Below the pieces are notes generated by a model, which did no database searches, had not been told where the DNA came from, and saw nothing but the letters and a program-made list of their open reading frames with translations. A stretch of DNA of 32,000 bases from Candidatus Saccharimonadota bacterium (lineage in GTDB: Bacteria > Patescibacteriota > Gracilibacteria > Absconditabacterales > Absconditicoccaceae). The stretch spans positions 1,140,001-1,172,000 of the forward strand of contig CP006913.1 of NCBI GenBank assembly GCA_000503875.1. The letters run 5' to 3'. The position numbers and the translations under genes are program-made. This document shows positions 2,552 to 26,912 of the stretch, one piece after another; position 1 is the first letter of the stretch, and each line of letters opens with the position of its first letter.

Positions 2552-4156
2552 ATGGAAAACATTGCTCTCAACAACATCCCCCAAGAGCCATGAGTGTACT
2601 TTTTCAAAGATAAGAAGGACATCGTTTTGTATATTGGAAAAGCAAAAAATCTCCAAAAAAGAGTGGCGCAATATTTTGCGGCGGGATCGGTTTGGAAACA
2701 AGATATGATGCAAAAAGCAGAGAAGGTTGATTTTATTGTTGTCCAAAATGAATCGGAAGCATTGTATCTCGAAGACAATCTTATCAAACAACATCTCCCT
2801 GAATATAACAATCTTCTCAAGGCCGACAACAGCTACACCTACCTCAAAATCACTAAACACGAATATCCAGAAATCTATCTTACAAGGAAAAAAATTCCCG
2901 ATGGATCGACCTATATTTGACCAAAACATAACACCCAGGAACTCAAAAAATTATTACAATATCTCAGACAAATCCTGCAACGAAGAGGATGTAAAAATAT
3001 CCAATTTAAACAAAAGAAATTATGTTCAGATTATTATTTTGGTTTGTGTAAAGGACGATGTGCCCTAGCAGATCTCGGCTCTTATCAACCAATTACTGCA
3101 GCGATTGCCTCATTTTTCAAAGGAAATACTAAGCCGATAGAACAGGAAATTAGACAGAAAATGAAAAATGCTATCGATCAACAACACTTCGAGCGAGCAG
3201 GGAAGCTCAGGGATATTTTGCTGTCATTGCAAGCATTTACTGAGCAACAAACTGCTGTTATTGCATCGCCAATTACGGGACATATTCTAGAAATCAGAGA
3301 GATTTGAGAGCGACGAGTATATGTTGTTCTCTATCTCTACCAGGGAAAAGTTATCGATGTTATTCGTCAGAAAATCAACAAATCTGATTATGATAAGGAA
3401 TCACTTTTGGCCAATCTCAGCGCAACCTATAATTCATTTACGCCACTAGACGATCATTATGTCGCGTTAACCAAGAAGCTTAAAAAGGCTGAAGCAGAGG
3501 AAATTAACAAATTTCTCCAGCGCTGCTTCGAATCTTTTGTCGTGTCGACCTCCTTCGAAAAAGAAAATCTATTAAATGATTTACTCTCGACACTTCAAAC
3601 CAGATACCAATTCGAAAATTTTCCTTACCGTATGGAACTGCTCGATATCTCGCACTTATCGGGCTGACGAGCAAGTGGAGGAATCTCTTGTTTGCTCTGA
3701 GGAATCCCATATTTCAAGGGATATCGCAGATATAAAATCAGCTCCAAAGTCAAACAACAAGATGACTACGCAGCCCTCAAAGAAGTCTTGATTCGTAGAT
3801 TTCTTAGCGACAAAGAAGCAACCTTACCAGATATTTTTATCCTTGATGGAGGAAAGGGGCAGCTACATGTTATTAAAGAATTACTAGAGGAAGAGCCAGC
3901 TTTTCAAGAGATTTTCGACAAAGTAGTTTTTGTTTGATTGGGAAAATGAGCCGCTAGAAAAACAACGAATATCGGGAAACAGAAATTTTGAGAAGATATT
4001 ACTGAGAAAATATATAGCTTTGATGCTTCCTTAAAAATCAAGGAAATTAAAATTATTTATGATGATGCCGATAAGCTTCTCATCAAACTTCGTAATGAAG
4101 CGCATAGATTTGCCAATGCCTACAGACAAAAACAAATGAGTAAGGAATGGAAATAA
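2552..4156 (+). CDS. uvrC: Excinuclease ABC subunit C (short form, no C-terminal HhH domain)
   Basis: Track fragments 2594.., 3044.. and 3407.. are in one frame and are joined by Gly-TGAs. Domains seen are GIY-YIG ([30 protein letters not shown]), YIGP with TGA at 2918, a UVR motif (QQHFERAGKLRD) and the endonuclease domain (ILDGGKGQL...EAHRFANAYRQK). Stop is TAA 4154-4156. Confidence 0.9.
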
Positions 4157-9030: not shown

Positions 9031-9414
9031 ATGAAAAACAAACTTTTTGTTATCGAATCGGGAATAATTTTAGGGCTAACAATTATTTACCTATTGTTTC
9101 CACAAAAAAATGTTCATATGTTTTTTATAGTTCCATTCCTGCTTTTTGGTTATGTATTTGGACAATCTTTGAGTCAGGAATATTATAATCCTATAGGAAA
9201 TAAAATAACAAGTATCTTGATTATTTTTGGGTCAAGCGTACTCCTATCTGGGGTTGCTTATCTTCTTCAACGAGCAATGTTTGTAAAAAGCCTTTTTTCA
9301 GGGTATTTACTTTTCCTAGCCTCTGTTGTATGTTTAATTATTGTGATAATGTTTCTCCTTGGCAAAAACATATCACTATTAAACCAAAGAATCTATCATA
9401 ATGAATCACTATAA
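9031..9414 (+). CDS. Hypothetical integral membrane protein (127 aa, about 4 TM helices)
   Basis: Intact ORF whose length is made of strongly hydrophobic segments. Confidence 0.6.
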   Translation: MKNKLFVIESGIILGLTIIYLLFPQKNVHMFFIVPFLLFGYVFGQSLSQEYYNPIGNKITSILIIFGSSVLLSGVAYLLQRAMFVKSLFSGYLLFLASVVCLIIVIMFLLGKNISLLNQRIYHNESL

Positions 9415-9426
9415 ATACATAAAAAA

Positions 9427-9765
9427 ATGAAAAATCTATTTTTTGCTGCAAGTATTCTAGTAGTACTGGCCTCTTGCAATCCAAAAGAAAAACGTGCTTT
9501 TATCCTTGGACAGGAGAGAGGAAATGATACAACAATCATTGCGTTGAAATTTAATATGCCGAATGCATTTATTGTTTCTGTATTCACAGAATCAAGATTG
9601 TCTCCTAGCATAGAAAAATTTCCAACAAATTCTACTTACCTTCCACCAGATAAAAAGGGATTAACAGTTTATATTCCAACCACCAAAAGTGGAACAAGAT
9701 TCTTGGTTATGGTTACTGATGTAAAAAATCAGAAAACAATAATGATAGAATCAAAAACAGAGTAA
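9427..9765 (+). CDS. Hypothetical lipoprotein (112 aa)
   Basis: Signal peptide with lipobox MKNLFFAASILVVLASC (Cys17). The gene starts 13 nt after the preceding gene. Confidence 0.6.
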   Translation: MKNLFFAASILVVLASCNPKEKRAFILGQERGNDTTIIALKFNMPNAFIVSVFTESRLSPSIEKFPTNSTYLPPDKKGLTVYIPTTKSGTRFLVMVTDVKNQKTIMIESKTE

Positions 9766-13524: not shown

Positions 13525-14706
13525 ATGAAAAATATGCGAAATATTACTAAGCAAAAATTTGATACCAAGATATTTTTTTCTTTTCATAATTTTTTTTCTC
13601 AACATATTTTCAAAAACGATATTGTAGCGGTTGCTGTTTCTGGCGGTCCAGATAGCATGTTTTTGAGTTGCTTACTTTATGATTTTTTTGTTTCTCAAAA
13701 ATATAATACAAAAAATCTGATTTTTATTCATCTCAATCACGGCGTAAGAACTGAAAGTATCGAAGAAGCGAAAAATATTAAACAACGATTTACATGAACA
13801 TCATTGGAAATTATTACCAGACCAAAAACACTCAAAGCAACAGAAAATGATCTTAGAAAACGAAGGTATCAAAAGTTTTTGGATACGATGATAAAGCATT
13901 GAGCAAACAAAATTTTTCTTGGACATCATTTTGATGATCGTGTAGAAACATCACTTTTAAACTTGCTTCGTGGATGTGGAGTAGATGGATTTATAGGAAT
14001 CAAACCAATCGAACACCATCATCTTTTACATGGAAAATTAGTTGTGAGACCGTTATTATCTCTTCGTAAAACAGAAATTCTTGATACATGTAAACAACAA
14101 AATATCCCTTATGTCCAAGATATTTCCAATCAAGATATTTCCGTAAGTCAGAGAAATTATTTGAGAAATGAAATTATTCCCAAGCTTTTTTTACAAAAAT
14201 GATTTGAAAAATTATTTCAAAAACGATACCAAAAATATGATAGCCAATCTATAGAAAACCTCTTACAACCAATAACAATAAGTCTTTATCGAAAAGCAAA
14301 ATCAGCATATTATTTGATAAAAAATAGAAAAGAATGTAGCGCCCAAGATCTTCTTCGTATCTTTAAACAACTACATGCAAGCGCTGGAATTACGACCAAA
14401 ACCTTACAAGAATTTCTGCCTTTTGTACAAACAGCAAACAAAGGTCGGAAATCAATTCAAGGCGTAATAGTTATGATTGCCCATGGAAAAGTATATTTCT
14501 TCGTTGCCTCAGAACGTTTTCGAGAAAAAACTATTGATAACAAAACTCAAATTACTACCCTTCATTATAGAGGGAAAACGCGGAATAAATATTGTATTAC
14601 CGAAAAAATTCCTATTTTCCGAAGGAACTTTATTCCTGTTGTTATAAAAGGAAATAAAATTATTTCTTGGGACAAAAAATGATGGGAAAACACGACCATT
14701 TTTTAA
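13525..14706 (+). CDS. tilS: tRNA(Ile)-lysidine synthase
   Basis: PP-loop VAVAVSGGPDSMFL, then IHLNHGVR and LGHHFDDRVETSLLNLLRG. Track ORFs 13525.., 13963.. and 14314.. share one frame and are joined by 4 Gly-TGAs. Stop is TAA 14704-14706. Confidence 0.9.
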
Positions 14707-14722
14707 TCTTTTTTACTACTTC

Positions 14723-15217
14723 ATGCGAGAATATATACAACCTATTGTATTCCAAATTACGTCTACACGATCATATATAGTTATTACTATTTCAGAAAAA
14801 CGAGGACGAACGCCACGAGTCGTAGAATATATTTTTGTTATTGGTGTTTTGTATCTTATAGCATTATTCTTACTCCACAAAGTCTATCGTTTTTTTGTCC
14901 ATTCGGTTTTAAAACAAAAAGCGAATTTTTTCTTGGCATGCGATACTGTTTTATATCAATTTCAATTAGAGAGTAACGAAAATCAACAGGATATATCTTG
15001 GATTAAAGAATTATTAAAAAAAGGATCGTATGAACAATCCTATAAATTATTTTTGGAAAAAACATCATTACTTCCTTTGGAAGCAGCAGAACACTTCAAA
15101 AGAAAACTTGAGAAAACTCACACCGCATACATCAATACATCCAAAAGAAAAACTTTTTGTGGGGTATTTTTGGTACTAGTTACTTTGGGCGTTTATAAGT
15201 TATTTCTAGAAAATTAA
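14723..15217 (+). CDS. Hypothetical membrane protein (164 aa)
   Basis: Intact ORF with two hydrophobic helices (IFVIGVLYLIALFLL and the C-terminal FCGVFLVLVTLGVY). Confidence 0.55.
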   Translation: MREYIQPIVFQITSTRSYIVITISEKRGRTPRVVEYIFVIGVLYLIALFLLHKVYRFFVHSVLKQKANFFLACDTVLYQFQLESNENQQDISWIKELLKKGSYEQSYKLFLEKTSLLPLEAAEHFKRKLEKTHTAYINTSKRKTFCGVFLVLVTLGVYKLFLEN

Positions 15218-15453
15218 TTTAATAAAATAGGTGGTCTTTTTTTGGATTGCTTTCTATCAAATTGTTCTAATTCTTCAGAAATCTGATATTCATTATGATG
15301 CTTTTTTTCTGGTTTTTTTGTTCAAACTCCTATTGCACGTCAAAGCTCTTCAAGTCCCATAGAAAGGCTGAGTCCTTTTCTTGTTCCAATAGTATTTGCC
15401 AGGCTTTCTTTTTGCTTTTCAGTTTGTTGGCCTAATTGATTATTTTCGCTCAT
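15214..15453 (-). CDS. Small hypothetical protein (79 aa), host-coded
   Basis: MSENNQLGQQTEKQKESLANTIGTRKGLSLSMGLEELGRAIGVGTKKPEKK... includes two Gly-TGAs, so it uses the host code. Its stop overlaps the stop of the convergent 14723..15217 gene. Confidence 0.5.
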
Positions 15454-15512: not shown

Positions 15513-15546
15513 AAAAAAAAGAGTTCCAGTAAAAAACTGGAACTCT
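15513..15546 (-). terminator. Strong rho-independent terminator of the T9SS-type operon
   Basis: On the minus strand: AGAGTTCCAGT, TTTTT loop, ACTGGAACTCT, then T8. The stem is 11 bp and lies 27 nt downstream of the TAA of the 453-aa gene. Confidence 0.8.
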
Positions 15547-15573
15547 TTAATCTATTATTTCTTCTGGTACTAG

Positions 15574-16935
15574 TTATTTACTACGCCAGATTTCTTGGCC
15601 ATCTAATTTCAACCAAAGAACTTCTTTGTTTTCGTATTCGTTCTTCTTCCAAAAGATTGCATAGCGTTTTTTGTCTGCACGAAGTAATGCAATAAAAGGC
15701 ATACTTCTTTCATCTTCAGGAAGACATCCCTTTTTAATGATTTTAGCCTGTTTGGTTAAGGCACTATCTAACTCGGCATAAACATAATCAATAACGAATT
15801 TATTAAGAGGAGATTCTCCTTCTTTTTCAATTACATCCATGCGGATGTTTTCATTATCTATACATTTAAAACGATTCTTAAAAAGAGGAACACTTGTCCA
15901 ATATCTTTGGTATGCACCAAGTTGAATTTCTCCCCTGAAAGGAACAAGTTCTAATTTTTCTAATTCAATTAAAAGTTGTTCTCTAGCGGTGATTGTATCA
16001 ATAGGTGTAGGTATAACTTGTCTCGTGAGCGTATCCAATGGAATACTATCCGATTTAGGAATTGTATCCAATACAGGAACACTGTCCAGTTGTATTGAAT
16101 CAAGTTTCGGAATAAATACAGGTTTTGTTAAGCTGTAAATGTCGTATCCACCTGATCCACCAGGACGATCAGATGCAAAATAATATAGGGAGTCAGTTTG
16201 TTTCCTAACATCTATAGTATTGCATCCAGAGATGTTAATAGGATAAGGAAGCTTTTGTGGAGCTTGCCATTCCCCATCAACAAAGAGAGATCGATATACA
16301 CAAAACCATCCATCCCGGTTGGAATTAAAATATAACTCTTTTCCGTTTGGAGTAATCCAAACACCATTCTCATCAAATGATGAATTGAGTATCTCTACAG
16401 GAACTGGTTTTTCTTTTCCTGTTTGAAAGTAGATGTCATAATTACCACTACGATTGCTCGTAAAATAAAGAGAATCTCCTTTTGTAGCTATACTATTTTC
16501 ATCATAATCGGAATTGATGTAAGGAACTTCTTGTAATGATTCTATGCTAATTCCTTGTTTCCTTGGAGCCATAAACAACTTTCCTTGGTCATTGAAATAA
16601 CCTCGATAAAAAAACCAATACTTATTAGACATACCAACCAATGCTGAATTTGCATCGATATTGGCACTGCCATAACTAAGTTTCTTTACCTTACCAAAGC
16701 TAGTATCTGCCATCTGTGTATAATACACCTTCTCTGTATATTCCAGAAGTCTATCTTCACGATTATTTCTTCGTTTAGAAGTAAACAACAACATAGAATC
16801 TACAGGAAAAGGTGAATACTCTGCAGCAACCGAATTGATGTCTAGATTTTTCATAACCCAGGTTGAATCCGGTTGCTGAGCAAACCCCAAAAAAGAACAA
16901 GAAACAGAATAAATAATTATCAGTAGCTTTTTCAT
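15574..16935 (-). CDS. PD40/TolB-like beta-propeller repeat protein with an unassigned C-terminal domain (third gene of the T9SS cargo triad)
   Basis: Signal peptide MKKLLIIIYSVSCSFLGFAQQ. Repeated PD40-type motifs are LLFTSKRRN, LYFTSNRSGNYDIY, LYFNSNRDGWFCVY and YYFASDRPGGSGGYDIY. The C-terminal ~130 aa begins FRGEIQLGAYQRY. No TGA. Stop is TAA. Confidence 0.8.
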   Translation of the reverse strand: MKKLLIIIYSVSCSFLGFAQQPDSTWVMKNLDINSVAAEYSPFPVDSMLLFTSKRRNNREDRLLEYTEKVYYTQMADTSFGKVKKLSYGSANIDANSALVGMSNKYWFFYRGYFNDQGKLFMAPRKQGISIESLQEVPYINSDYDENSIATKGDSLYFTSNRSGNYDIYFQTGKEKPVPVEILNSSFDENGVWITPNGKELYFNSNRDGWFCVYRSLFVDGEWQAPQKLPYPINISGCNTIDVRKQTDSLYYFASDRPGGSGGYDIYSLTKPVFIPKLDSIQLDSVPVLDTIPKSDSIPLDTLTRQVIPTPIDTITAREQLLIELEKLELVPFRGEIQLGAYQRYWTSVPLFKNRFKCIDNENIRMDVIEKEGESPLNKFVIDYVYAELDSALTKQAKIIKKGCLPEDERSMPFIALLRADKKRYAIFWKKNEYENKEVLWLKLDGQEIWRSK

Positions 16936-16941
16936 ACGCTA

Positions 16942-17823
16942 CTATTTAGAGGATTTCGAATAAGGAAGCTTTAGCATTAAGACAACCTCATGTTTGGTAA
17001 ACGAATAACCATATACGTCACCAAATGAATAAGAGCCGCAATACCCAAATGATATATTTTGGACATTAATTCCAAAACCACCTTTTATCGTATTTGCAGA
17101 TGCATATCCTATGCTAAAAAGAATATCCTTATTGAGAATAAATTTTCCAGATACCCCATATTGTACGCTACTGAAAGTTTGTGTGATAACATATCCACTT
17201 CCCTCCAAGAACAATACATTTTCCATCAAAGTAAATCTGTACATACCACTAGCAGCATACGTAATATTAGTTTTGTTTTCAAAACTACTTACCATCCAAT
17301 CAGTTTGACTGGGAAGTAAATTATACGCAGCGATACCAACATAGTATCTATCTACTTGATTAAGTGCTAAACCGAAATTGGCATTAAACCAGTTTCCAGA
17401 TTCGGCACCCTGGAGAATAGGATCATCTATATCGTGTACTTCTACACGATCTCTCATTAATTTTAATTGGTTAAATCCGCCACTTAATCCAAACGAAAGT
17501 TTGGAACCACCAACAGGTACATGGTAAATAAAAGTAGCCTCAGCAGAAAGGTTTTGTAGTACGCCACCTTCTTGCGAAGCAATCTTAAATCCACCTGCAA
17601 CCCGTTGATTATTAAACGGTGAACTCCCCCAAAACATAAAGGATTTCGGATGATAATCATAGGCACCCATTTCTGTTTGATAGAGCGTACCCAATTTTAC
17701 CATTTCATTGTATCCGCCCAAACTTGGATTGGCTAAATATGGGTCATAGCCAGCCCCTAATTGAGCGAACCCTTTCGTTGATATAAGCACTACCAACAAA
17801 AGGAAAATTCTGATTTTTTTCAT
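16942..17823 (-). CDS. PorP/SprF-family type IX secretion system membrane protein
   Basis: 293 aa with signal peptide MKKIRIFLLLVVLISTKGFAQ. It has the N-terminal YLANPSLGGY motif, alternating beta-strand-like sequence, and a position immediately downstream of a type-B CTD cargo gene. No TGA. Stop is TAG. Confidence 0.8.
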   Translation of the reverse strand: MKKIRIFLLLVVLISTKGFAQLGAGYDPYLANPSLGGYNEMVKLGTLYQTEMGAYDYHPKSFMFWGSSPFNNQRVAGGFKIASQEGGVLQNLSAEATFIYHVPVGGSKLSFGLSGGFNQLKLMRDRVEVHDIDDPILQGAESGNWFNANFGLALNQVDRYYVGIAAYNLLPSQTDWMVSSFENKTNITYAASGMYRFTLMENVLFLEGSGYVITQTFSSVQYGVSGKFILNKDILFSIGYASANTIKGGFGINVQNISFGYCGSYSFGDVYGYSFTKHEVVLMLKLPYSKSSK

Positions 17824-17842
17824 TGTAATATATTTTTGTTGG

Positions 17843-20401
17843 TTAGTACAATATAGTTATTGTTTTCCAATATGGTTTTTCAGAACCATCTTGTTTAACA
17901 ACTTTTAAGTATAAATAAACAAGTGATCCGGAAGCAACAAGATTACCATTTTTATTCTTGGCATCCCAAATGGTCTGAGAAGGATCTGTTGATGTAAAGA
18001 TTTCGCCATCTTTGTTTTGGATAACAAGTACTATTGAGATAGCATTGTTACACAAAGAACTAAAATCCAATACGTCATTATCTCCATCTCCATTTGGAGT
18101 AACAAGATTGGGAATAGCTACACCATTTCCTGCCATAATTTCGACAGAATCTGTTGTAACACAACCATTATTATCGGTTATTTGCACATAATGCCGACCA
18201 GCTGCCAAAGAATCCGCTTCCTGAGTTGTTTGAACGGGAATACCACTCCATAAGTAAGTATGCGGTGGGGTAAAATGATCCACATATTGTACTAAGGCCG
18301 TACCATCCTCGCATTCAGGACAAGAAGTATTTTCAACTCTGAAATAAGTTCTAGGATGATCAGGTTGTTCAATAATAACCTTTTCCATAGAGATACATCC
18401 ATTATCATCGGTAACCGTTACATCATAAGACCCTGCCTTCAGTCTATCAATAATAAAACTGTTTGCGGGAGTTGTAATAGTAACCGTAGTATCAACACCT
18501 AAATAATTAGTTCCATCAAGTACTAATGTACTATTTGGTCCAGAGGTACCACCTGATACATTCACTTCAACACTTCCTCGTCCATCATAGCATAGGCTAT
18601 GGGTTGGGTTAATAGTTACTACCAAAGGGAGTGGTTGTACAAACGTAATAGTGGTATCAAAGTCACAAGTTCCATTTGAAATACGAACCAGATGATCACC
18701 AATAGGCATATCAACAAAGCTTGTAGTGTCATCAAATAACACATTTTGCGTAACTCCACCTACAGTAATATCTAGAGGAAATGCTTCCAAGTTATGAACT
18801 CTAATTATCCCTAATTCGTCGTTACACGAGATAGGAGTATTTACAAATTCAAATTGGAAATTTGCTGGATTAGTAAGTGTCCAGGTTGTGTCAAAAACAC
18901 AGCCAACACTGTCCTTAAGATGTAAGTCATAAATTCCACTACTAAGATTTGTTATAGCATTGGTATTGTTATTCATAAGTACGCCATCTTTTTTCCAGAC
19001 AAAAGAGTTTCCTCCATTACCTCCAATAACTGTTGTCGTGATACTAGCATTGGTGTATTCATAACAACCTACAGGAACAACAACATCTGTTACATGAAGT
19101 CGGGCTGGTTCATTTATTGTTACCGCTGGCGGAATAAATGTACATCCGTTTTCATCAGTAATTGTCAATGTATACGTTCCAGCAGCAAGTCCAGTAATAG
19201 AAGCAGTCGTTTGACCACTATCCCAAGAATAACTTAATTGACCAGTTCCTCCACTAAAATTGGCAGTAATAGAGCCATCATTAGCTTGGAAACAAGTCAG
19301 ATCTTTTTTAATTAGTTCTCCTTGAATAGGTGAATCAGGTTCCTTTATAATTACACTTTGATCCAAAGCACATCCTGTAGAATCTTCTACATGAATAGTA
19401 TATCTACCAGCAAATAAGTCAGTAACTGCTGCATTATTGCTAGAGAATCCACTCGGACCAGTAATTGTGTAAACAAAACCACTATAACTTCCTTCTGCAA
19501 CTGCGTTAATACGTCCCGTATTATCTCCATAACACAAAATATTTCTTTGTGTGTAGGAAATTTTTATTGGTGTAAGAACACTGTCAACCAACCAAGAATG
19601 TCGAAAACCTTTATTATCGTTTGTTACGACTTTAAAGATATTTCTCCCTGGATAAACTTCAGAAGAAAAACTTGCTACAGTATCTGCTACACTTGTTACA
19701 TACAGTGGACCAGGAAGTAATTCAACAATAGTAACCGTGTCTTCCGGGAACTGCACTTGTGCAGGTAAATTAGCAGGAACTAAAATTGGTCTTACATCAC
19801 TAATTGGCGCTGTTGCATCATAGCAAGCAGTAGAATCAATTTCGTAAGTCGTAGTAATTCCAGATAATTCATTAACAACAACAGTATCATTTCTTTGACA
19901 ACCGTTTATATCAGTAAGCGTAATAAAATACGTTCCTGAATAAAGATTATCGAAAACATTAGCTGTTTGTGTTGTTTCAATAGTAGTAGTACTATCAATC
20001 AAATTATAGGTAAACCATCCGGTTCCACCTCCAGCTGTAATAGTAATCCTCCCATTTGGCAAAGGCCAATTGGAATTAGGAACTATCGCATATGCTGCAG
20101 TGATCGCAGGAGGATTATCCAGCGTATAAGTAAATGTTTCTGTTGCCAAAAGGGCATTAGTAACAGTTACGGAATACAAAGCAGCATCCAAACCAGAAGC
20201 GACTTTCCCTGAAAGAGTTGGTATAACTATACCATTTCGTTCCCATACATACGTATAAGGAGGATTAATCAATGTAGTAGTAACGGTTATTTCACCGTCC
20301 TTACCATCATGACACTTAATGTTTTCTGTGGCAGTGATCTGTGAAAAACCAGACAGCCAAAAAAACAAAAGTACCAACGTTACAATAATTTTTTGTCTCA
20401 T
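17843..20401 (-). CDS. SprB-repeat cell-surface adhesin with a T9SS type-B sorting (gliding-motility-associated) C-terminal domain
   Basis: Signal peptide MRQKIIVTLVLLFFWLSGFSQ. About 8 repeats of ~75 aa follow the pattern C..(D/N)G.I......GG....Y.W......GL.AG.Y...(T/V)D.NGC. The C-terminus is IPNLVTPNGDGDNDVLDF...WDAKNKNGNLVASGSLVYLYLKV. No TGA in 852 codons. Stop is TAA. Confidence 0.9.
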   Translation of the reverse strand: MRQKIIVTLVLLFFWLSGFSQITATENIKCHDGKDGEITVTTTLINPPYTYVWERNGIVIPTLSGKVASGLDAALYSVTVTNALLATETFTYTLDNPPAITAAYAIVPNSNWPLPNGRITITAGGGTGWFTYNLIDSTTTIETTQTANVFDNLYSGTYFITLTDINGCQRNDTVVVNELSGITTTYEIDSTACYDATAPISDVRPILVPANLPAQVQFPEDTVTIVELLPGPLYVTSVADTVASFSSEVYPGRNIFKVVTNDNKGFRHSWLVDSVLTPIKISYTQRNILCYGDNTGRINAVAEGSYSGFVYTITGPSGFSSNNAAVTDLFAGRYTIHVEDSTGCALDQSVIIKEPDSPIQGELIKKDLTCFQANDGSITANFSGGTGQLSYSWDSGQTTASITGLAAGTYTLTITDENGCTFIPPAVTINEPARLHVTDVVVPVGCYEYTNASITTTVIGGNGGNSFVWKKDGVLMNNNTNAITNLSSGIYDLHLKDSVGCVFDTTWTLTNPANFQFEFVNTPISCNDELGIIRVHNLEAFPLDITVGGVTQNVLFDDTTSFVDMPIGDHLVRISNGTCDFDTTITFVQPLPLVVTINPTHSLCYDGRGSVEVNVSGGTSGPNSTLVLDGTNYLGVDTTVTITTPANSFIIDRLKAGSYDVTVTDDNGCISMEKVIIEQPDHPRTYFRVENTSCPECEDGTALVQYVDHFTPPHTYLWSGIPVQTTQEADSLAAGRHYVQITDNNGCVTTDSVEIMAGNGVAIPNLVTPNGDGDNDVLDFSSLCNNAISIVLVIQNKDGEIFTSTDPSQTIWDAKNKNGNLVASGSLVYLYLKVVKQDGSEKPYWKTITILY

Positions 20402-20571
20402 AAGTGGTTAATTTAATTTATATTTAATTTTTGTTTAATTTCTTTGTTAATTACCTAGCTAGATATACCCGAAAAATAAGCATTCCAGCCATCATAGTAT
20501 ATGTAGCTATTTGGCGATAAAAGTCAATACAATAATGAGAATAAATTATATAAAACAAGAAACAAATCAGA

Positions 20572-20599
20572 TTGATTTTTTTGTAAAATTTCCTATATT
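20572..20599 (+). promoter_or_regulatory. Candidate sigma70-type promoter of dnaJ
   Basis: TTGATT (20572-20577), N16, TATATT (20594-20599), 45 nt upstream of the ATG. Confidence 0.45.
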
Positions 20600-20624
20600 A
20601 TCACCTCGACAAAAAAAGTGCTAT
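20598..20624 (+). promoter_or_regulatory. Degenerate CIRCE-like inverted repeat (possible HrcA operator)
   Basis: TTATCACCT-N9-AAGTGCTAT compared with consensus TTAGCACTC-N9-GAGTGCTAA gives 13/18 matches. It overlaps the putative -10 box of dnaJ. Confidence 0.35.
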
Positions 20625-20643
20625 TTACTATTAACGTATAGAT

Positions 20644-21693
20644 ATGGATTTTGATGTAAAAAAGGATTATTACAAAATATTAGATATTCCAGAAACGGCC
20701 ACAGCGGAAGACGCAAAGAAAGCATTCAAAAAGCTTGCAGTAAAACATCACCCAGACCGCTGATGAGATAAAGCAAAATTTCAAGAGATCAACGAAGCTT
20801 ATCAAACCTTAGGAGATGAAAAAAAGAAAGCTCAATACGATGCTTATCGTAGTGGTGGCGGAGGACAAGGATGATATGATTTTGGCGGATTTGGCGGTTG
20901 ATGACAAGGATGATTTGATTTCTGAGGAGTAGATCTCGGAGATATTTTTGGAAATATGTTTGGAGGTGGATTTGGAGGACAACAAACAAGAGCAGAATCA
21001 TTTAGTGGAGAAGATATCAAAGTTGCTATAGAAATTACTTTTGAAGAATGATTTTTGGGAGTAACCAAAAAGGTCGCTTACAATAGAAAAATAAAAATGT
21101 CTGGTATTGATGAAAAAAATTGTAGCACTTGTAAAGGTCAATGAAGAGTTTCAAGAACAGTTCAAACACCTTTTGGAATGATGCAAACTCAAACTGTTTG
21201 TCCAGATTGTGGAGGTGTTGGTCACCAATATACCAAGGATGGAAAGACTATTAAATCTCCATTTGAAAATCACAAAGAAACGATTGAAGTTAAAATTCCA
21301 GAAGGAATCGATGATGGCGTTTATATAAAATTTACTGGAAAAGGACACCAATGATTAAATGGTTATGATGGTGATTTATATATCAAAATAAATATTCAGA
21401 CTTCTCCTATATATGAAAGAAGATCAGATAATTTATATATCAAAGTTCCTGTAACCATTTTTGATCTTGTGCTTGGAGCAGAAAAACAAATCACTCATCC
21501 AGAAGGAAAACTAAAAGTAAAAATCCCAAAAGCTACTCAGGTAGGAGATATGGTCAAAATATCTGGAAAATGATTTGGTAAGTGATGAATCTTTGGTAAA
21601 AAATGAGATCTTTATCTGATTCCAAAAGTAGACATCCCAAAAAAATTAAGCAAAGAAGAAGAAAAATTGTGGAAAGAATTAGCTTCGATATAG
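20644..21693 (+). CDS. dnaJ: Molecular chaperone DnaJ
   Basis: J-domain [35 protein letters not shown], with GG encoded TGA TGA at 20761-20766. A G/F-rich region is partly TGA-encoded. The zinc finger is CSTCKGQGRV...CPDCGGVG. There are 14 Gly-TGAs. Stop is TAG 21691-21693. Confidence 0.95.
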
Positions 21694-21777: not shown

Positions 21778-22335
21778 ATGCTCATAACCATAACTTGAAA
21801 AGCTTGAAGCGGAAAATCTACTGCAGCTAAGGCACTTGCAGAGAGGCTTTGATACGAATATATTTCTATATGAAGCATGAGAAGAATTGTTGCAGAGAAA
21901 ATGTGATTAAATATTTTGGAATTTAATGAGCTTGGCGAACGCCCAGAAAATCAAAAAGAATTTGATTTGAAATACGAAGAATATCAAAAAAGTTTAGATC
22001 CAACATCCAAAATTGTTTTGGAAAGTAGATTGTGATTTTTTTGTCAGCCAAAATCTTTTAAAATTTTTTTAACGGTTGATGAAGAATCTGCAGCAAAAAG
22101 AATATTTAATAATAAAAGATCTACTGATGATTATACATCTTGGGAAGAAGTTTTAGAAAAAACAAAAATAAGAGATAAAGAAGATGTAGAAAGATATAAA
22201 GAATTATATAATGTAGATTATAGTGATTTCAAAAATTATGATCTAATATTGGATACAACAATTAAAAATGTTGATGAAACAGTCGACGAAATTATAGAGC
22301 CATTTAATAAATACAAGAAAAACCAGCAAAAATAA
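21778..22335 (+). CDS. cmk: Cytidylate kinase, archaeal-type / (d)CMP kinase-like P-loop kinase
   Basis: MLITITGKAGSGKSTAAKALAERLGYEYISIGSMRRIVAEKMGLNILEFNELGE..., with P-loop glycines encoded by TGA at 21796 and 21805. 185 aa. Stop is TAA 22333-22335. Confidence 0.75.
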
Positions 22336-25469: not shown

Positions 25470-26912
25470 ATGAAGAAAACAACAGAAAAGGACTCTTTGG
25501 TTTCTCAGATCAAAGCGATTCCAAATCAAGTTAAAATTTTTGTTTTGGGATTGTTTGTGGTAGTTTTGGCTCTTGTTAGTGTTTTGCCTAACTTAAATTA
25601 TAAATTCCTTCAAGGAAGCATTTTAAATATAAAAACAGAATCAAAAGTTAATGGTTATGGTTATTGATATGGTTATGAACCTCCATATGTTTTTGTAGAT
25701 GATGATTGATATGGATATGGTTATCAAGTAGATGAAAACACTAAAAAATATATTAGAATTAGAAATATTGAATTTTATTTTGATAATATGTCTGATATAT
25801 TAACTGTAAAAGTAATATATAGTCCAAGATATGAAGGCACTATGATTGTAGAACCATCTATTTATCTTGTTGAGCCAGCACAAATAAATTATTGAACCAC
25901 AAATCCATCATATATTGGGAAATGTTTGGTTTTGGAAAACAATGATATTTGTATTATGAAACAACAATTTACTATAAATAGAACATTGCATGGAAATCAA
26001 ATAAAAGTAACACCAGTATTTAAAACAAGAGTTACTGCAGTATCAAATAATGATCAAAGAGCTTTATGACAAATAATAATCGATAATGCCAGCACAAATA
26101 CAACTTGTCAAACACCAGAAAACATATTAGCGTGTTCTTTGCATTTAACATCTTGTCCAAGTGAATGTAGACCAGCTCAATGTCAAACACCAGAAAATGT
26201 ATTAGCGTGTTCTTTGGGGTTAGATTCTTGTCCACAAGAATGTATATATAATTGAAATACTACTTTAACAGGGAATGTTTGTCAAACACCAGAAAATGTA
26301 TTAGCATGTTCTTTGCATTTAGCATCTTGTCCACAAGAATGTAGACCAGCCCAATGTCAAATACCAGAGAATGTATTAGCGTGTTCTTTAGGGTTAGATT
26401 CTTGTCCACAAGAATGTATATATGGAGCAACTTCAGGAAACACAACATCATACTGGACTAACTGGCTCAATAGAGATGGTCCATCTGGAAACGGAGATTA
26501 TGAAACATATGCTGATTTTATGCCAGTTCCTTGTAAAGATGGATATCAACCAATTGATGTAAAATTTATTCGTGCTGACGAAAGTGAAACAACACAAACT
26601 ATTCATTTTTCATCGAAAGGTGGGTATTGTTTAAATAGTGAAAATTCAAAATGATGTGCAGATTATAAAGTGAAATTCTTTTGTGAAAAAACAGGAAGCA
26701 AACCAACGATTATTGAAAAGCCAAAAGAAACACCAAGAGTTATTGAACAACCAAAGGTTGTAGAAACACCGATAGTTATAGAAAAGCCAAGAACTGTAAA
26801 AGAAGCAATAACTATAGAAGCTAAACCAACACCAAAGACAAAAGAAACGATTGAAACTAAAACTACAGCAGAATCAACAATTTTAGATATTTTCAAAGAT
26901 CTTTTAAAATAA
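25470..26912 (+). CDS. Membrane-anchored surface protein: GY repeats, 4 Cys-rich repeats, WxxW (mucin-2-type) domain, Pro/Lys/Glu-rich tail
   Basis: 480 aa. The signal anchor is VKIFVLGLFVVVLALVSVL. GYGYGYGY...GYGYGY follows. CQTPENVLACSL.L.SCP.EC occurs four times. YWTNWLNRDGPSGNGDYETYADFMPVPCKDGYQPIDVKF...GGYCLNSENSKGCADYKVKFFC (26451-26684) fits the WxxW domain pattern. The tail reads KPTIIEKPKETPRVIEQPKVVETPIVIEKPR. Stop is TAA 26910-26912. Confidence 0.85.
26106..26423 (+). repeat. In-frame tandem duplication: two ~144-bp super-repeats (period 174 bp), each made of two 69-75-bp Cys-rich units
   Basis: Units lie at 26106-26180, 26181-26249, 26280-26354 and 26355-26423. 26106-26249 and 26280-26423 differ at only about ten positions. 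Confidence 0.9.

Follow-up and report, generated by a model that had tools for sequence, protein, structure and literature searches.

Why does a genome that writes about a third of its glycine codons as TGA keep one resident operon free of that codon? The question is posed by positions 15574–20401 (minus strand) of a stretch of 32,000 nucleotides from contig CP006913.1 (GenBank assembly GCA_000503875.1, Candidatus Saccharimonadota bacterium), hereafter the window, where three back-to-back genes without in-frame TGA stand between native genes in which TGA encodes glycine. TGA is a stop codon in nearly all bacteria other than the group that uses genetic code 25, and alternative genetic codes are widely seen as barriers to gene flow and to phages. 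The three genes, hereafter the cassette, are a Bacteroidota-derived type IX secretion system (T9SS) "cargo plus anchor" operon, encoding an adhesin with SprB repeats, a PorP/SprF-like barrel and a PorE-like TolB-propeller protein. The comparisons described here indicate that the cassette very likely entered this Candidate Phyla Radiation (CPR) lineage once and long ago, and that in-frame TGA has very probably been selected against within it.

TGA Usage in the Cassette and in Native Genes

Open reading frames (ORFs) were called in the window with TAA and TAG as the sole stops. Read with the standard bacterial code (table 11), the window breaks up into many short ORFs, except between 15.5 and 20.4 kb, and once TGA is removed from the stops, long genes appear, nearly all with TGA in frame. 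That TGA is read as glycine is evident from dnaJ, in which TGA supplies 14 glycine codons and whose product shows the usual glycine-rich linker under code 25, as well as from the presence of TGA at conserved glycine columns of native proteins; the host genome uses code 25. In-frame TGA occurs 28 times in the gene for an ABC transporter, 14 times in dnaJ, eight times in topA and four times in tilS, with at least two occurrences in each of the other ORFs of more than 170 codons, such that TGA makes up 169 of the 492 glycine codons in the native genes of the window (0.343). The three ORFs of the cassette, on the other hand, hold 126 glycine codons of the form GGN (68, 34 and 24, respectively) and no in-frame TGA. 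An initial annotation of the window, made from the letters alone, had given precisely these counts (28, 14, 8 and 4, and none in the three ORFs).

We extended the comparison to relatives, the genomic contexts of which were obtained from a GTDB-wide scan, from look-ups of exact proteins and from a metagenome probe; in all, the survey covers ∼40 kb of this genome and ∼250 kb of relatives (individual loci are referred to below by handles such as L006). Across 61 native genes with at least 15 glycine codons, taken from nine related loci, the fraction of glycine codons written as TGA ranges from 0.125 to 0.79, with a median of 0.41 and one outlier at zero, and with the lowest ordinary native rate (0.125), the chance of finding no TGA among 126 glycine codons is still as small as 5e-8. 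Over nine loci, the cassette contains 997 glycine codons and six TGA triplets, none of which is a genuine in-frame glycine TGA: three stand at the ends of frameshifted fragments (L005 and L007), and the other three are the old stop codon of porP, which in L006 and L028 survives within an ATGA overlap of stop and start, and in L025 within TGATAA. These fossil stops are backed by TAA, either immediately or four codons on. In the standard-code relatives L004 and L037, porP stops at the equivalent ATGA overlap.

At conserved glycine columns, 61 of 68 in the cassette are polymorphic among GGN codons and none of the 68 carries TGA, compared to 147 of 192 columns with TGA in native genes (Fisher p = 1.7e-32). 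In the closest genome pairs, 15–22% of native glycine sites differ in their TGA/GGN state, whereas none of the 105–116 glycine sites of the cassette does so, even though 19–42% of the cassette sites have switched among GGN codons in the same pairs. This last test is independent of when the cassette arrived. The depletion is, furthermore, specific to the reading frame, with 0.2 in-frame TGA per 1000 in the cassette vs 26.6 in native genes, and with off-frame values of 12.3 and 51.5 vs 14.6 and 32.5. The share of TGA, the host's most frequent glycine codon, among glycine codons (0.00 in the cassette vs 0.38 in native genes) is the sole large difference in codon usage between the two, and C-ending "optimal" codons of two-fold families are not enriched in the cassette. 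Turnover among GGN codons that never passes through TGA, taken together with the frame-specific depletion, points to active selection against in-frame TGA, and on the strength of these codon comparisons we consider such selection very probable. One consequence is that the operon yields essentially identical proteins under code 25 and code 11 and is, in this sense, code-neutral or "bilingual".

Simpler sources of the bias were considered and rejected. A strand or mutational bias does not account for it, as the TGA/Gly fraction of same-strand native genes is 0.47 and, outside the reading frame, the cassette carries TGA at normal or higher levels. Nor is TGA avoidance linked to secretion, as the native secreted proteins p375 and p439 and a pilin-like protein all use TGA. 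An additional reassignment of CGA/CGG likewise gives no signal, the host and the cassette using these codons alike. The pilin-like protein is encoded by a type IV pilin-like gene (MKFLGKKRGFTLIEMLIV...) at positions 2169–2762 of L040, a part of the source contig 6 kb to the left of the window, and TGA accounts for 14 of its 25 glycine codons.

Gene Content of the Operon

The cassette consists of three ORFs on the minus strand, separated by gaps of 19 and 6 nt. Gene 1 (17843–20401, 68 glycine codons) encodes a secreted adhesin of 852 amino acids that carries SprB/Ig-like repeats and, at its C terminus, a type-B T9SS sorting domain (CTD). The SprB repeats are matched by Pfam above the gathering score (87.7 bits, 3.6e-25), as is the CHU_C type-B CTD at residues 762–838 (17888–18118, minus strand; PF13585, 36.2 bits vs a gathering score of 27, 6.6e-9); in NCBIfam the CTD is borderline, at 26.3 bits for TIGR04131, which is under the cut-off of 35. 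The signal peptide of the adhesin, MRQKIIVTLVLLFFWLSGFSQ, ends in GFSQ (...SGFSQ), and its orthologues in eight code-25 loci are 56–88% identical.

Gene 2 (16942–17823, minus strand; 293 amino acids, 34 glycine codons) encodes an outer-membrane β-barrel of the PorP/SprF family, with 120.2 bits for PF11751 (gathering score 22.3, 1.6e-34) and 121.9 bits for TIGR03519 (cut-off 90.55), the latter match covering positions 1–289 of the 292 in the profile. Barrels of this family are the cognate partners of cargo with a type-B CTD. Its orthologues are 58–90% identical. The porP-like gene starts 19 nt past the stop of the adhesin gene, an arrangement common to all CPR and Bacteroidota loci compared.

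Gene 3 (15574–16935, minus strand; 453 amino acids, 24 glycine codons) encodes a PD40 protein with a signal peptide, comprising a TolB-like β-propeller (residues ∼27–270), a disordered linker rich in P, D, S and T (274–313), and an α/β C-terminal domain (317–451). The PD40 match scores 40.8 bits in Pfam, and an AlphaFold model (mean pLDDT 79.9) gives Foldseek matches to TolB at E 2e-8. A SPOR or OmpA identity was considered for the C-terminal domain and rejected: the domain has no Pfam match, and the whole-chain Foldseek result is dominated by the propeller. We also rejected membership in the PorE (PG1058) family, which is built from TPR, a β-propeller, a CRD and a peptidoglycan-binding OmpA_C domain: the protein scores 31.8 bits for NF052230 (cut-off 600) and 44.2 for the CHU_0125_OmpA model (cut-off 620), both matches are partial and confined to the propeller, and no OmpA_C or TPR domain is matched. 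The gene 3 protein is PorE-like in its position and in its propeller, but is not a member of PorE.

The signal peptides of genes 1, 2 and 3 end in GFSQ, GFAQ and GFAQQ, respectively, as the initial annotation had read them, and the family calls made there (a type-B T9SS CTD adhesin, PorP/SprF and PD40) are borne out by the Pfam and NCBIfam profiles. A glutamine that directly follows signal-peptide cleavage is a habit specific to Bacteroidota, the Q-rule (PMC5837995, PMC10653852). All three proteins obey this rule in all CPR copies, while the native secreted protein p375 does not have this glutamine. The type-B CTD is another Bacteroidota feature that the CPR copies have kept, as are their A-rich 5' leaders.

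Phylogenetic Origin

The origin of the cassette was examined with a neighbor-joining tree of two proteins, PorP and the PD40 protein. The copies from code-25 genomes form, together with L004, a single clade (100% bootstrap) that is nested among Bacteroidota/Bacteroidales copies of the same three-gene order. The sister of this CPR clade is formed by metagenome-assembled genomes (MAGs) labeled "Bacteroidota bacterium", with Paludibacteraceae further out, and the three-gene unit is present in 17 Bacteroidota loci. Judged by this tree, the cassette is ultimately of Bacteroidota origin, in line with the type of donor that had been named for it at the outset.

L004 comes from a standard-code member of the CPR: its aspartyl-tRNA synthetase is nearest to sequences from Patescibacteria, Falkowbacteria and Parcubacteria, and its uvrC is just 33% identical to that of the window. 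In L037, a relative of L004, the cassette occupies the same site, between rlmH and an mtnA-like gene, with identities of 65–80% for the cassette and 66–83% for the flanks. These standard-code copies are 44–60% identical to the cassette of the window. The cassette lineage is thus a long-term resident of two unrelated CPR lineages that use different codes.

Age of the Cassette and Continuity of the Locus

The cassette lies at the same site between dnaJ and tilS in at least nine independently assembled code-25 genomes of Absconditabacteria type from different samples. These relatives, labeled Candidatus Absconditabacteria or Peribacteria, are heavily recoded, with 12–33 TGA codons in dnaJ. The order dnaJ, cassette, an ORF of 73–89 amino acids, an ORF of 155–164 amino acids and tilS is found in the window and in L006, L007, L024, L025, L028/L029 and L030; the dnaJ-side layout is seen in L033, L035, L036 and L005 (in L005 as the dnaJ junction only), and L027 and L039 show the tilS-side junction only. 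The upstream junction with dnaJ is present in every genome whose contig reaches that far. In one relative, L034, a deletion has taken out the adhesin gene and porP together with the 5' portion of the PD40 gene, whose last 257 codons are all that is left between p161 and dnaJ (3277–4050). An empty site in code-25 relatives, which the initial annotation had suggested looking for, was not found: a search of metagenomes with the conserved DNA of the dnaJ operator as the probe returned only cassette-bearing relatives and the L034 remnant.

The abrupt shift in TGA usage at both junctions could, in principle, be produced by an error of assembly or binning that placed a piece of Bacteroidota DNA within a CPR contig, a caveat that had been attached to the locus from the start. 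The same gene order and junctions are, however, found in the MAG contig DPJE01000001.1 (GCA_003543185.1) and in a contig assembled independently from the same run with MEGAHIT, and identical junctions recur in at least nine assemblies from unrelated samples. Conserved intergenic blocks also run unbroken across the dnaJ junction, and the codon usage of the cassette fits its CPR flanks and not Bacteroidota. The recurrence of the junctions across assemblies and between two assemblers refutes the chimera, and we regard the chance that one underlies the locus as negligible.

A recent transfer from a standard-code Bacteroidota donor, with no time yet for TGA or for host codon usage to be acquired, was the reading of the initial annotation, and it would account for the absence of in-frame TGA, for the Bacteroidota-type families, signal peptides and gene order, and for a G+C content of the cassette region slightly above that of its neighbors. 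This reading is refuted by the wider comparison, however. The genomes that carry the cassette at this site are diverged and do not represent one clone: synonymous divergence (pS) spans 0.24–0.70 for the cassette, much as it does for the flanks (0.21–0.74), and synonymous sites across the clade are near saturation. The cassette had been described as not yet drifted toward host codon usage, but its G+C content at third codon positions (GC3) is 0.221 vs 0.211 in the flanks and its within-amino-acid codon fractions correlate with those of the flanks at r = 0.97. For comparison, GC3 is 0.373 in Bacteroidota copies, the codon usage of which follows that of their own flanks (r = 0.98). The modest excess in G+C is explained by amino-acid composition. 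As described above, 61 of 68 conserved glycine columns have turned over among GGN codons, and never to TGA. Finally, full-length orthologues form a series from 87 to 51% identity, followed by a step down to ∼41%, and the nearest Bacteroidota homologues are just 33–41% identical. It had been proposed that orthologous cassettes containing glycine TGA and widespread in related code-25 genomes would mark an old native locus. Orthologous cassettes are indeed widespread, but they too are TGA-free, such that the absence of TGA reflects selection and not recency. We consider a recent transfer to be extremely improbable.

Instead, a single old acquisition by the ancestor of a family-level clade of Absconditabacteria-type, code-25 bacteria, followed by vertical inheritance, is highly likely given the shared site and the matching divergence. 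Entry took place between dnaJ and the p79/p164/tilS group; there has since been a degree of exchange among members of the clade, as well as a partial deletion in one of them. Among code-25 genomes, the housekeeping proteins of the flanks are 78–96% identical and the cassette proteins 50–90%, similar to the fast-evolving native tilS product and p164. With dN/dS values of 0.10–0.33, which are rough because pS is near saturation, the three cassette proteins are under purifying selection.

The subsequent exchange is visible in individual loci. The cassette of L024 is 87–88% identical to that of the window, but its tilS product and p164 are only 53–60% identical; L030 shows the reverse, with 80–89% identity in the tilS product and p164, and 65–73% in the adhesin and the PD40 protein. 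This incongruence between cassette and flanks suggests recombination among relatives, with putative breakpoints at or near the borders of the cassette. We found no integrase or mobility genes in the loci, and the only flanking direct or inverted repeats are short matches at chance level. Searches of IMG/VR, INPHARED and PLSDB likewise found no relatives of the cassette in viral contigs, phages or plasmids.

A separate observation concerns the gene beside dnaJ (21778–22335 in the window), which encodes a kinase of either of two unrelated types at a fixed position. A kinase of the cytidylate-kinase-2 type is found in the window, L005, L006 and L007 (69–82% identity), and an AAA_17/18-type kinase that is 32–35% identical is found in L024 (4516–5082), L025 (4645–5205), L028 (4589–5155) and L030 (4650–5216). 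This position has undergone non-orthologous replacement, and the neighborhood is a mosaic.

Flanking Genes and Expression Signals

Both flanks of the operon are native. Upstream, dnaJ (20644–21693, plus strand, 14 glycine TGA codons) is divergently transcribed. Downstream, the junction is formed by a conserved ORF of 79 amino acids (p79; 15214–15453, minus strand), p164 (14723–15217) and tilS (13525–14706). The two glycine TGA codons assigned to 15214–15453 in the initial annotation are present, on the minus strand, and the promoter-like site that it placed from 20572 is also found there. The start of the dnaJ gene is not, as the ATG lies at 20644.

The operon is closed by a bidirectional, intrinsic-terminator-like hairpin (15518–15548) with a stem of 13 bp followed by a T run, 26 nt beyond the stop of gene 3 and with p79 directly downstream. 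At its other end, an A-rich 5' leader (20402–20485, minus strand) precedes the adhesin gene. The 25 nt ahead of the adhesin ATG are 57% A, compared to 33–36% A and 48–50% T ahead of native genes. More generally, the start codons of the cassette are preceded by 25 A-rich nucleotides, those of native genes by T-rich sequence, and Bacteroidota genes lean to A. Beyond the leader lies a conserved block (20486–20533, minus strand), a candidate promoter and operon 5' end that is invariant in all eight aligned code-25 genomes. It comprises ATTGTATTGACTTTT (20519–20533), which contains a σ70 −35-like TTGACT, a spacer of 17 nt, a weak −10-like ACATAT, and then the invariant TATGATGGCTG (20486–20496). 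A consensus promoter scanner did not call this block a canonical promoter, but it looks like a candidate σ70 promoter with a weak −10 element. We also considered a Bacteroidota −7 promoter (TAnnTTTG) and rejected it, as only an inexact, T-rich TA[TA]TTTTT is conserved, the TTTG is inconsistent, and the TTGACT box is instead σ70-like. The σ70-like block and the intrinsic terminator point to expression in the CPR cell itself.

Several smaller features of this intergenic region were noted. Within the operon leader, the invariant ATGATGGCTG (20442–20486, minus strand) opens a possible upstream ORF of 14–15 codons (in the window, MMAGMLIFRVYLAR*); most relatives keep this frame open, but in L007 it stops after four codons, and it may represent either a leader peptide or a promoter/+1 element. 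Upstream of dnaJ, a CIRCE-like inverted repeat, TTATCACCTC-N9/10-GTGCTATT (dnaJ strand, 20592–20625), is kept in all relatives and probably serves HrcA as an operator, and the invariant block AAAAAAATCAATCTGATTT at 20564–20582 adjoins it. A Shine–Dalgarno sequence is absent from 65 of the 66 native gene starts checked, with T-rich upstream regions (for example, at 2552, 5066 and 27027 of the window), and in examples read by eye, TTTTATAT-like motifs stand ∼15–25 nt before native ATGs, which suggests that native genes have very short leaders. A difference in Shine–Dalgarno sequences is uninformative as a marker of the cassette, as neither native nor cassette genes carry them. Rfam and tRNA scans of the window found nothing.

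Possible Reasons for the Exclusion of TGA

In Bacteroidota, type-B CTD cargo binds a PorP-like barrel in the outer membrane, and the barrel in its turn binds a PorE-like propeller protein of the periplasm that is attached to peptidoglycan; genes of the porP-like kind are frequently neighbors of porE-like genes (PMC9143113). The cultured Absconditabacterium Vampirococcus is surrounded by just one membrane and by a wall of Gram-positive type (PMC8080830). None of the T9SS core genes was seen in the stretches of this genome and of its relatives covered by our survey, and we found no report in the literature linking Absconditabacteria or other CPR bacteria to the T9SS or to T9SS cargo modules. As the cargo–anchor complex, which in Bacteroidota displays an adhesin on the outer membrane, normally needs both that membrane and a T9SS, and the relative is monoderm, a canonical function of the complex in the CPR cell is doubtful. 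The single membrane and the need for a T9SS would instead be consistent with a module that acts at the interface with a T9SS-bearing Bacteroidota partner. TGA may then have been purged because the operon needs to be translated correctly in surroundings that do not decode UGA as glycine, either in a standard-code, T9SS-bearing partner cell or in the CPR cell during a state without decoding by tRNA-Gly(UCA). The former setting would fit a module that depends on an outer membrane and a T9SS and still obeys the Q-rule, its occurrence in two lineages of epibionts, and the report that Absconditabacteria co-occur with Bacteroidetes (PMC8406219). The latter would fit the σ70-like block ahead of the operon and the hints of further genes that lack TGA without being Bacteroidota-like. 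This explanation, taken as a whole, is the one that we favor, with a degree of confidence that lies somewhat above the midpoint. As to its specific claim that the operon must stay decodable without UGA as glycine, we find the case evenly balanced, and we would give no particular setting for such translation more than a minor chance of being the right one.

The boldest version of the partner-cell setting is that the operon is a payload, that is, that CPR epibionts keep a Bacteroidota-format module to be decoded by a standard-code, T9SS-bearing host and exported by the Sec, Q-rule and T9SS machinery of that host. We hold this to be speculative and on balance unlikely. If it were true, the host would display a parasite-encoded adhesin or receptor, or have its gliding/T9SS apparatus jammed, and the operon would be a bacterial analogue of T-DNA or of a Tir-type "bring your own receptor" strategy; this would also explain the ban on what is the host's stop codon.

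A number of points weigh against the explanation that we favor. The evidence for a single membrane comes from another Absconditabacterium (Vampirococcus). The promoter-like block has a σ70-type TTGACT box, and not the Bacteroidota −33/−7 type (TAnnTTTG), and is paired with an ordinary intrinsic terminator. The search for border repeats, an integrase, or a phage or plasmid copy found none of these. The tree that indicates the origin of the cassette is a neighbor-joining tree of only two proteins, and the dN/dS values are affected by the near-saturation noted above. Finally, we know of no mechanism by which CPR genes would be translated in another cell, nor of one for switching off UGA decoding.

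The alternatives differ in where they place the cause of the ban, which could also lie within the translation or the inheritance of the CPR cell itself. Under ordinary translational selection, UGA would be decoded more slowly or less accurately than GGN, and the operon would be so highly expressed or so sensitive that TGA was purged. Native TGA/Gly fractions do vary widely (0.125–0.79), with conserved genes such as topA being low, surface adhesins can be abundant, and low-level mistranslation of UGA has been reported in a code-25 BD1-5 bacterium (PMC4032931). In the proteomics of that same bacterium, however, UGA-encoded glycine is present in 97 of 820 detected peptides (∼12%; PMC4032931), and 77% of the conserved glycine columns of dnaJ, topA and uvrC carry TGA. 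All three cassette genes are, furthermore, TGA-free in every lineage, including those for the barrel and the propeller protein, and the cassette shows no enrichment of C-ending codons and is used like average native genes in its codon choice. The pilin-like gene described above, with TGA in 14 of 25 glycine codons, also argues against this reading. Translational selection formally still stands as a further point against our favored explanation, as the ribosomal-protein and EF-Tu genes lie outside the stretches surveyed (a further 8.4 kb of the source contig held no ribosomal genes), but we consider it unlikely. The ban could also be only apparent, if chromosomal copies were repeatedly overwritten by TGA-free alleles from a standard-code-compatible vehicle such as a phage, another CPR bacterium or the host. 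The opposite incongruence of cassette and flanks in L024 and L030 would fit such a reservoir, as would the span of the cassette clade across two CPR lineages with different codes, and dual-code phages of such hosts are known (PMC10746230). Replacement would nonetheless have to outrun the TGA/GGN turnover seen at 15–22% of native glycine sites in the closest pairs. The pS of the cassette matches that of the flanks, and the standard-code copies, at 44–60% identity, indicate no recent exchange. No relative was found among IMG/VR viral contigs, INPHARED phages or PLSDB plasmids, and the loci have no mobility genes or flanking repeats, and we thus judge a reservoir to be improbable. The evidence thus disfavors both translational selection and a reservoir.

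A TGA-independent regulon is closer to the explanation that we favor, sharing with it the second of the two settings. Here, the CPR cell would pass through states without UGA decoding, for example, a dispersal or attack phase, or takeover by a code-11-compatible phage that disables tRNA-Gly(UCA), and a small set of genes that includes the adhesin operon would be kept TGA-free. The conserved σ70-like block and the terminator, which imply expression in the CPR cell, agree with this, and other TGA-free genes that are not Bacteroidota-like are hinted at (a small membrane-protein family and the window ORFs at 9031–9765, with the NAGPA islet of L024 listed as well; see below). Set against this, tRNA-Gly(UCA) is not known to be regulated, the statistics for the further TGA-free genes are weak because these genes are short, and only ∼250 kb of such genomes was surveyed. 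It would also leave unexplained why proteins that depend on an outer membrane and a T9SS are retained in a probably monoderm cell. We consider such a regulon conceivable, but doubtful both in general and for either of the example states.

Other TGA-Free and Secreted Genes

A family of proteins of 124–147 amino acids, with an N-terminal transmembrane helix and an (I/L)GDDY motif, is encoded between a yceD-like and a PD-(D/E)XK gene in eight loci and has no TGA among 31 glycine codons. Its members lie at 14092–14478 in L006, 13929–14339 in L007, 14035–14478 in L024, 14014–14403 in L025, 14067–14441 in L028, 14105–14506 in L030, 165–542 in L034 and 4362–4772 in L039. The family is absent from the window and is not Bacteroidota-like.

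L024 carries a second TGA-free islet in a recoded genome (19474–20793, minus strand), between TrmB and p375, a position at which the window has no insert. The islet comprises a 212-amino-acid NAGPA (phosphodiester glycosidase) with 27 glycine codons, no TGA and a Bacteroidota-style signal peptide (...GSNAQ), and then ORFs of 115 and 97 amino acids, the former with no TGA among six glycine codons. Within the window, two adjacent small TGA-free ORFs (9031–9414 and 9427–9765, plus strand) stand in a variable region and encode a 127-amino-acid membrane protein with nine glycine codons and a 112-amino-acid, lipoprotein-like protein (LPAM_1 lipobox), respectively. These may be further foreign or code-neutral genes, although the statistics are weak.

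Also in the window (25470–26912, plus strand), a secreted native protein of 480 amino acids combines a Mucin2_WxxW-type domain with four Cys-rich repeats in tandem (CQTPENVLACSL..CPQEC), and is encoded with six glycine TGA codons. It may be another surface or host-interaction protein.

Relation to Known Systems and Implications

The cassette has the same gene order as the type-B T9SS modules of Bacteroidota, such as PG1035–PorP–PorE of P. gingivalis and SprB–SprF of F. johnsoniae, which has six porP-like genes near porE-like genes (PMC9143113). It also resembles these modules in that its SprB, CHU_C and PorP/SprF profile matches lie above the cut-offs and its Sec signal peptides obey the Q-rule. 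It differs from them in being carried by CPR genomes, in one code-25 and one code-11 lineage, the relatives of which are reported to be single-membraned, in the lack of any T9SS core gene in the sequence surveyed, in a third protein that is not PorE, and in the exclusion of the host's TGA glycine codon.

With regard to this exclusion, the nearest precedent for a code-neutral operon is provided by the dual-code phages. These code-11-compatible phages, targeted by CRISPR spacers of Gracilibacteria/Absconditabacteria, contain no TGA in frame, and their TGA stops are backed up by further stops (Liu et al. 2023, PMC10746230). The cassette likewise lacks in-frame TGA and has backed TGA stops (ATGA...TAA in L006 and L028, TGATAA in L025), but unlike the phages it is chromosomal, at a fixed site, inherited within a clade, and without phage genes or relatives in viral contigs. 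Alternation between hosts gives the phages an obvious selective reason for a dual code, whereas a resident operon has no such established reason. In the literature on code-25 bacteria and on horizontal transfer, we found no account of a recoded bacterium that keeps chromosomal genes free of its reassigned codon.

The cassette can also be compared to ameliorating genomic islands, with which it shares a foreign origin by phylogeny, its form as a discrete unit between native genes, and loss in one lineage. Unlike recent islands, it has ameliorated codon usage, lacks mobility genes and repeats, and occurs in every relative sampled, once as a remnant. Unlike ameliorating islands in general, it has one codon held at zero despite mutation pressure, which amelioration theory does not predict. 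A looser analogy is offered by the T-DNA of Agrobacterium, in which genes are carried by one organism in the "expression language" of the recipient. The cassette similarly has features that fit the machinery of another organism, namely, readability in the standard code, the Q-rule and T9SS dependence. Unlike T-DNA, no transfer apparatus, border sequences or evidence of delivery were found in the loci surveyed, and its upstream element is σ70-like, not Bacteroidota-like.

In summary, a foreign operon appears to have crossed the barrier between genetic codes and to have settled for the long term, taking on host-like codon usage while being held readable identically in both codes, which makes it a quantitative case of a reassigned codon being, very probably, selectively forbidden in particular genes. 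It would also provide a concrete molecular link between uncultured epibionts of Absconditabacteria and Parcubacteria type and their T9SS-bearing Bacteroidota partners. Genes that are ameliorated but TGA-free may, more generally, serve as a genomic marker for those genes of recoded symbionts whose action crosses the code boundary or does not depend on the reassigned tRNA. Should expression in a host cell or a switchable state of UGA decoding prove to be the cause, either would represent a new principle.

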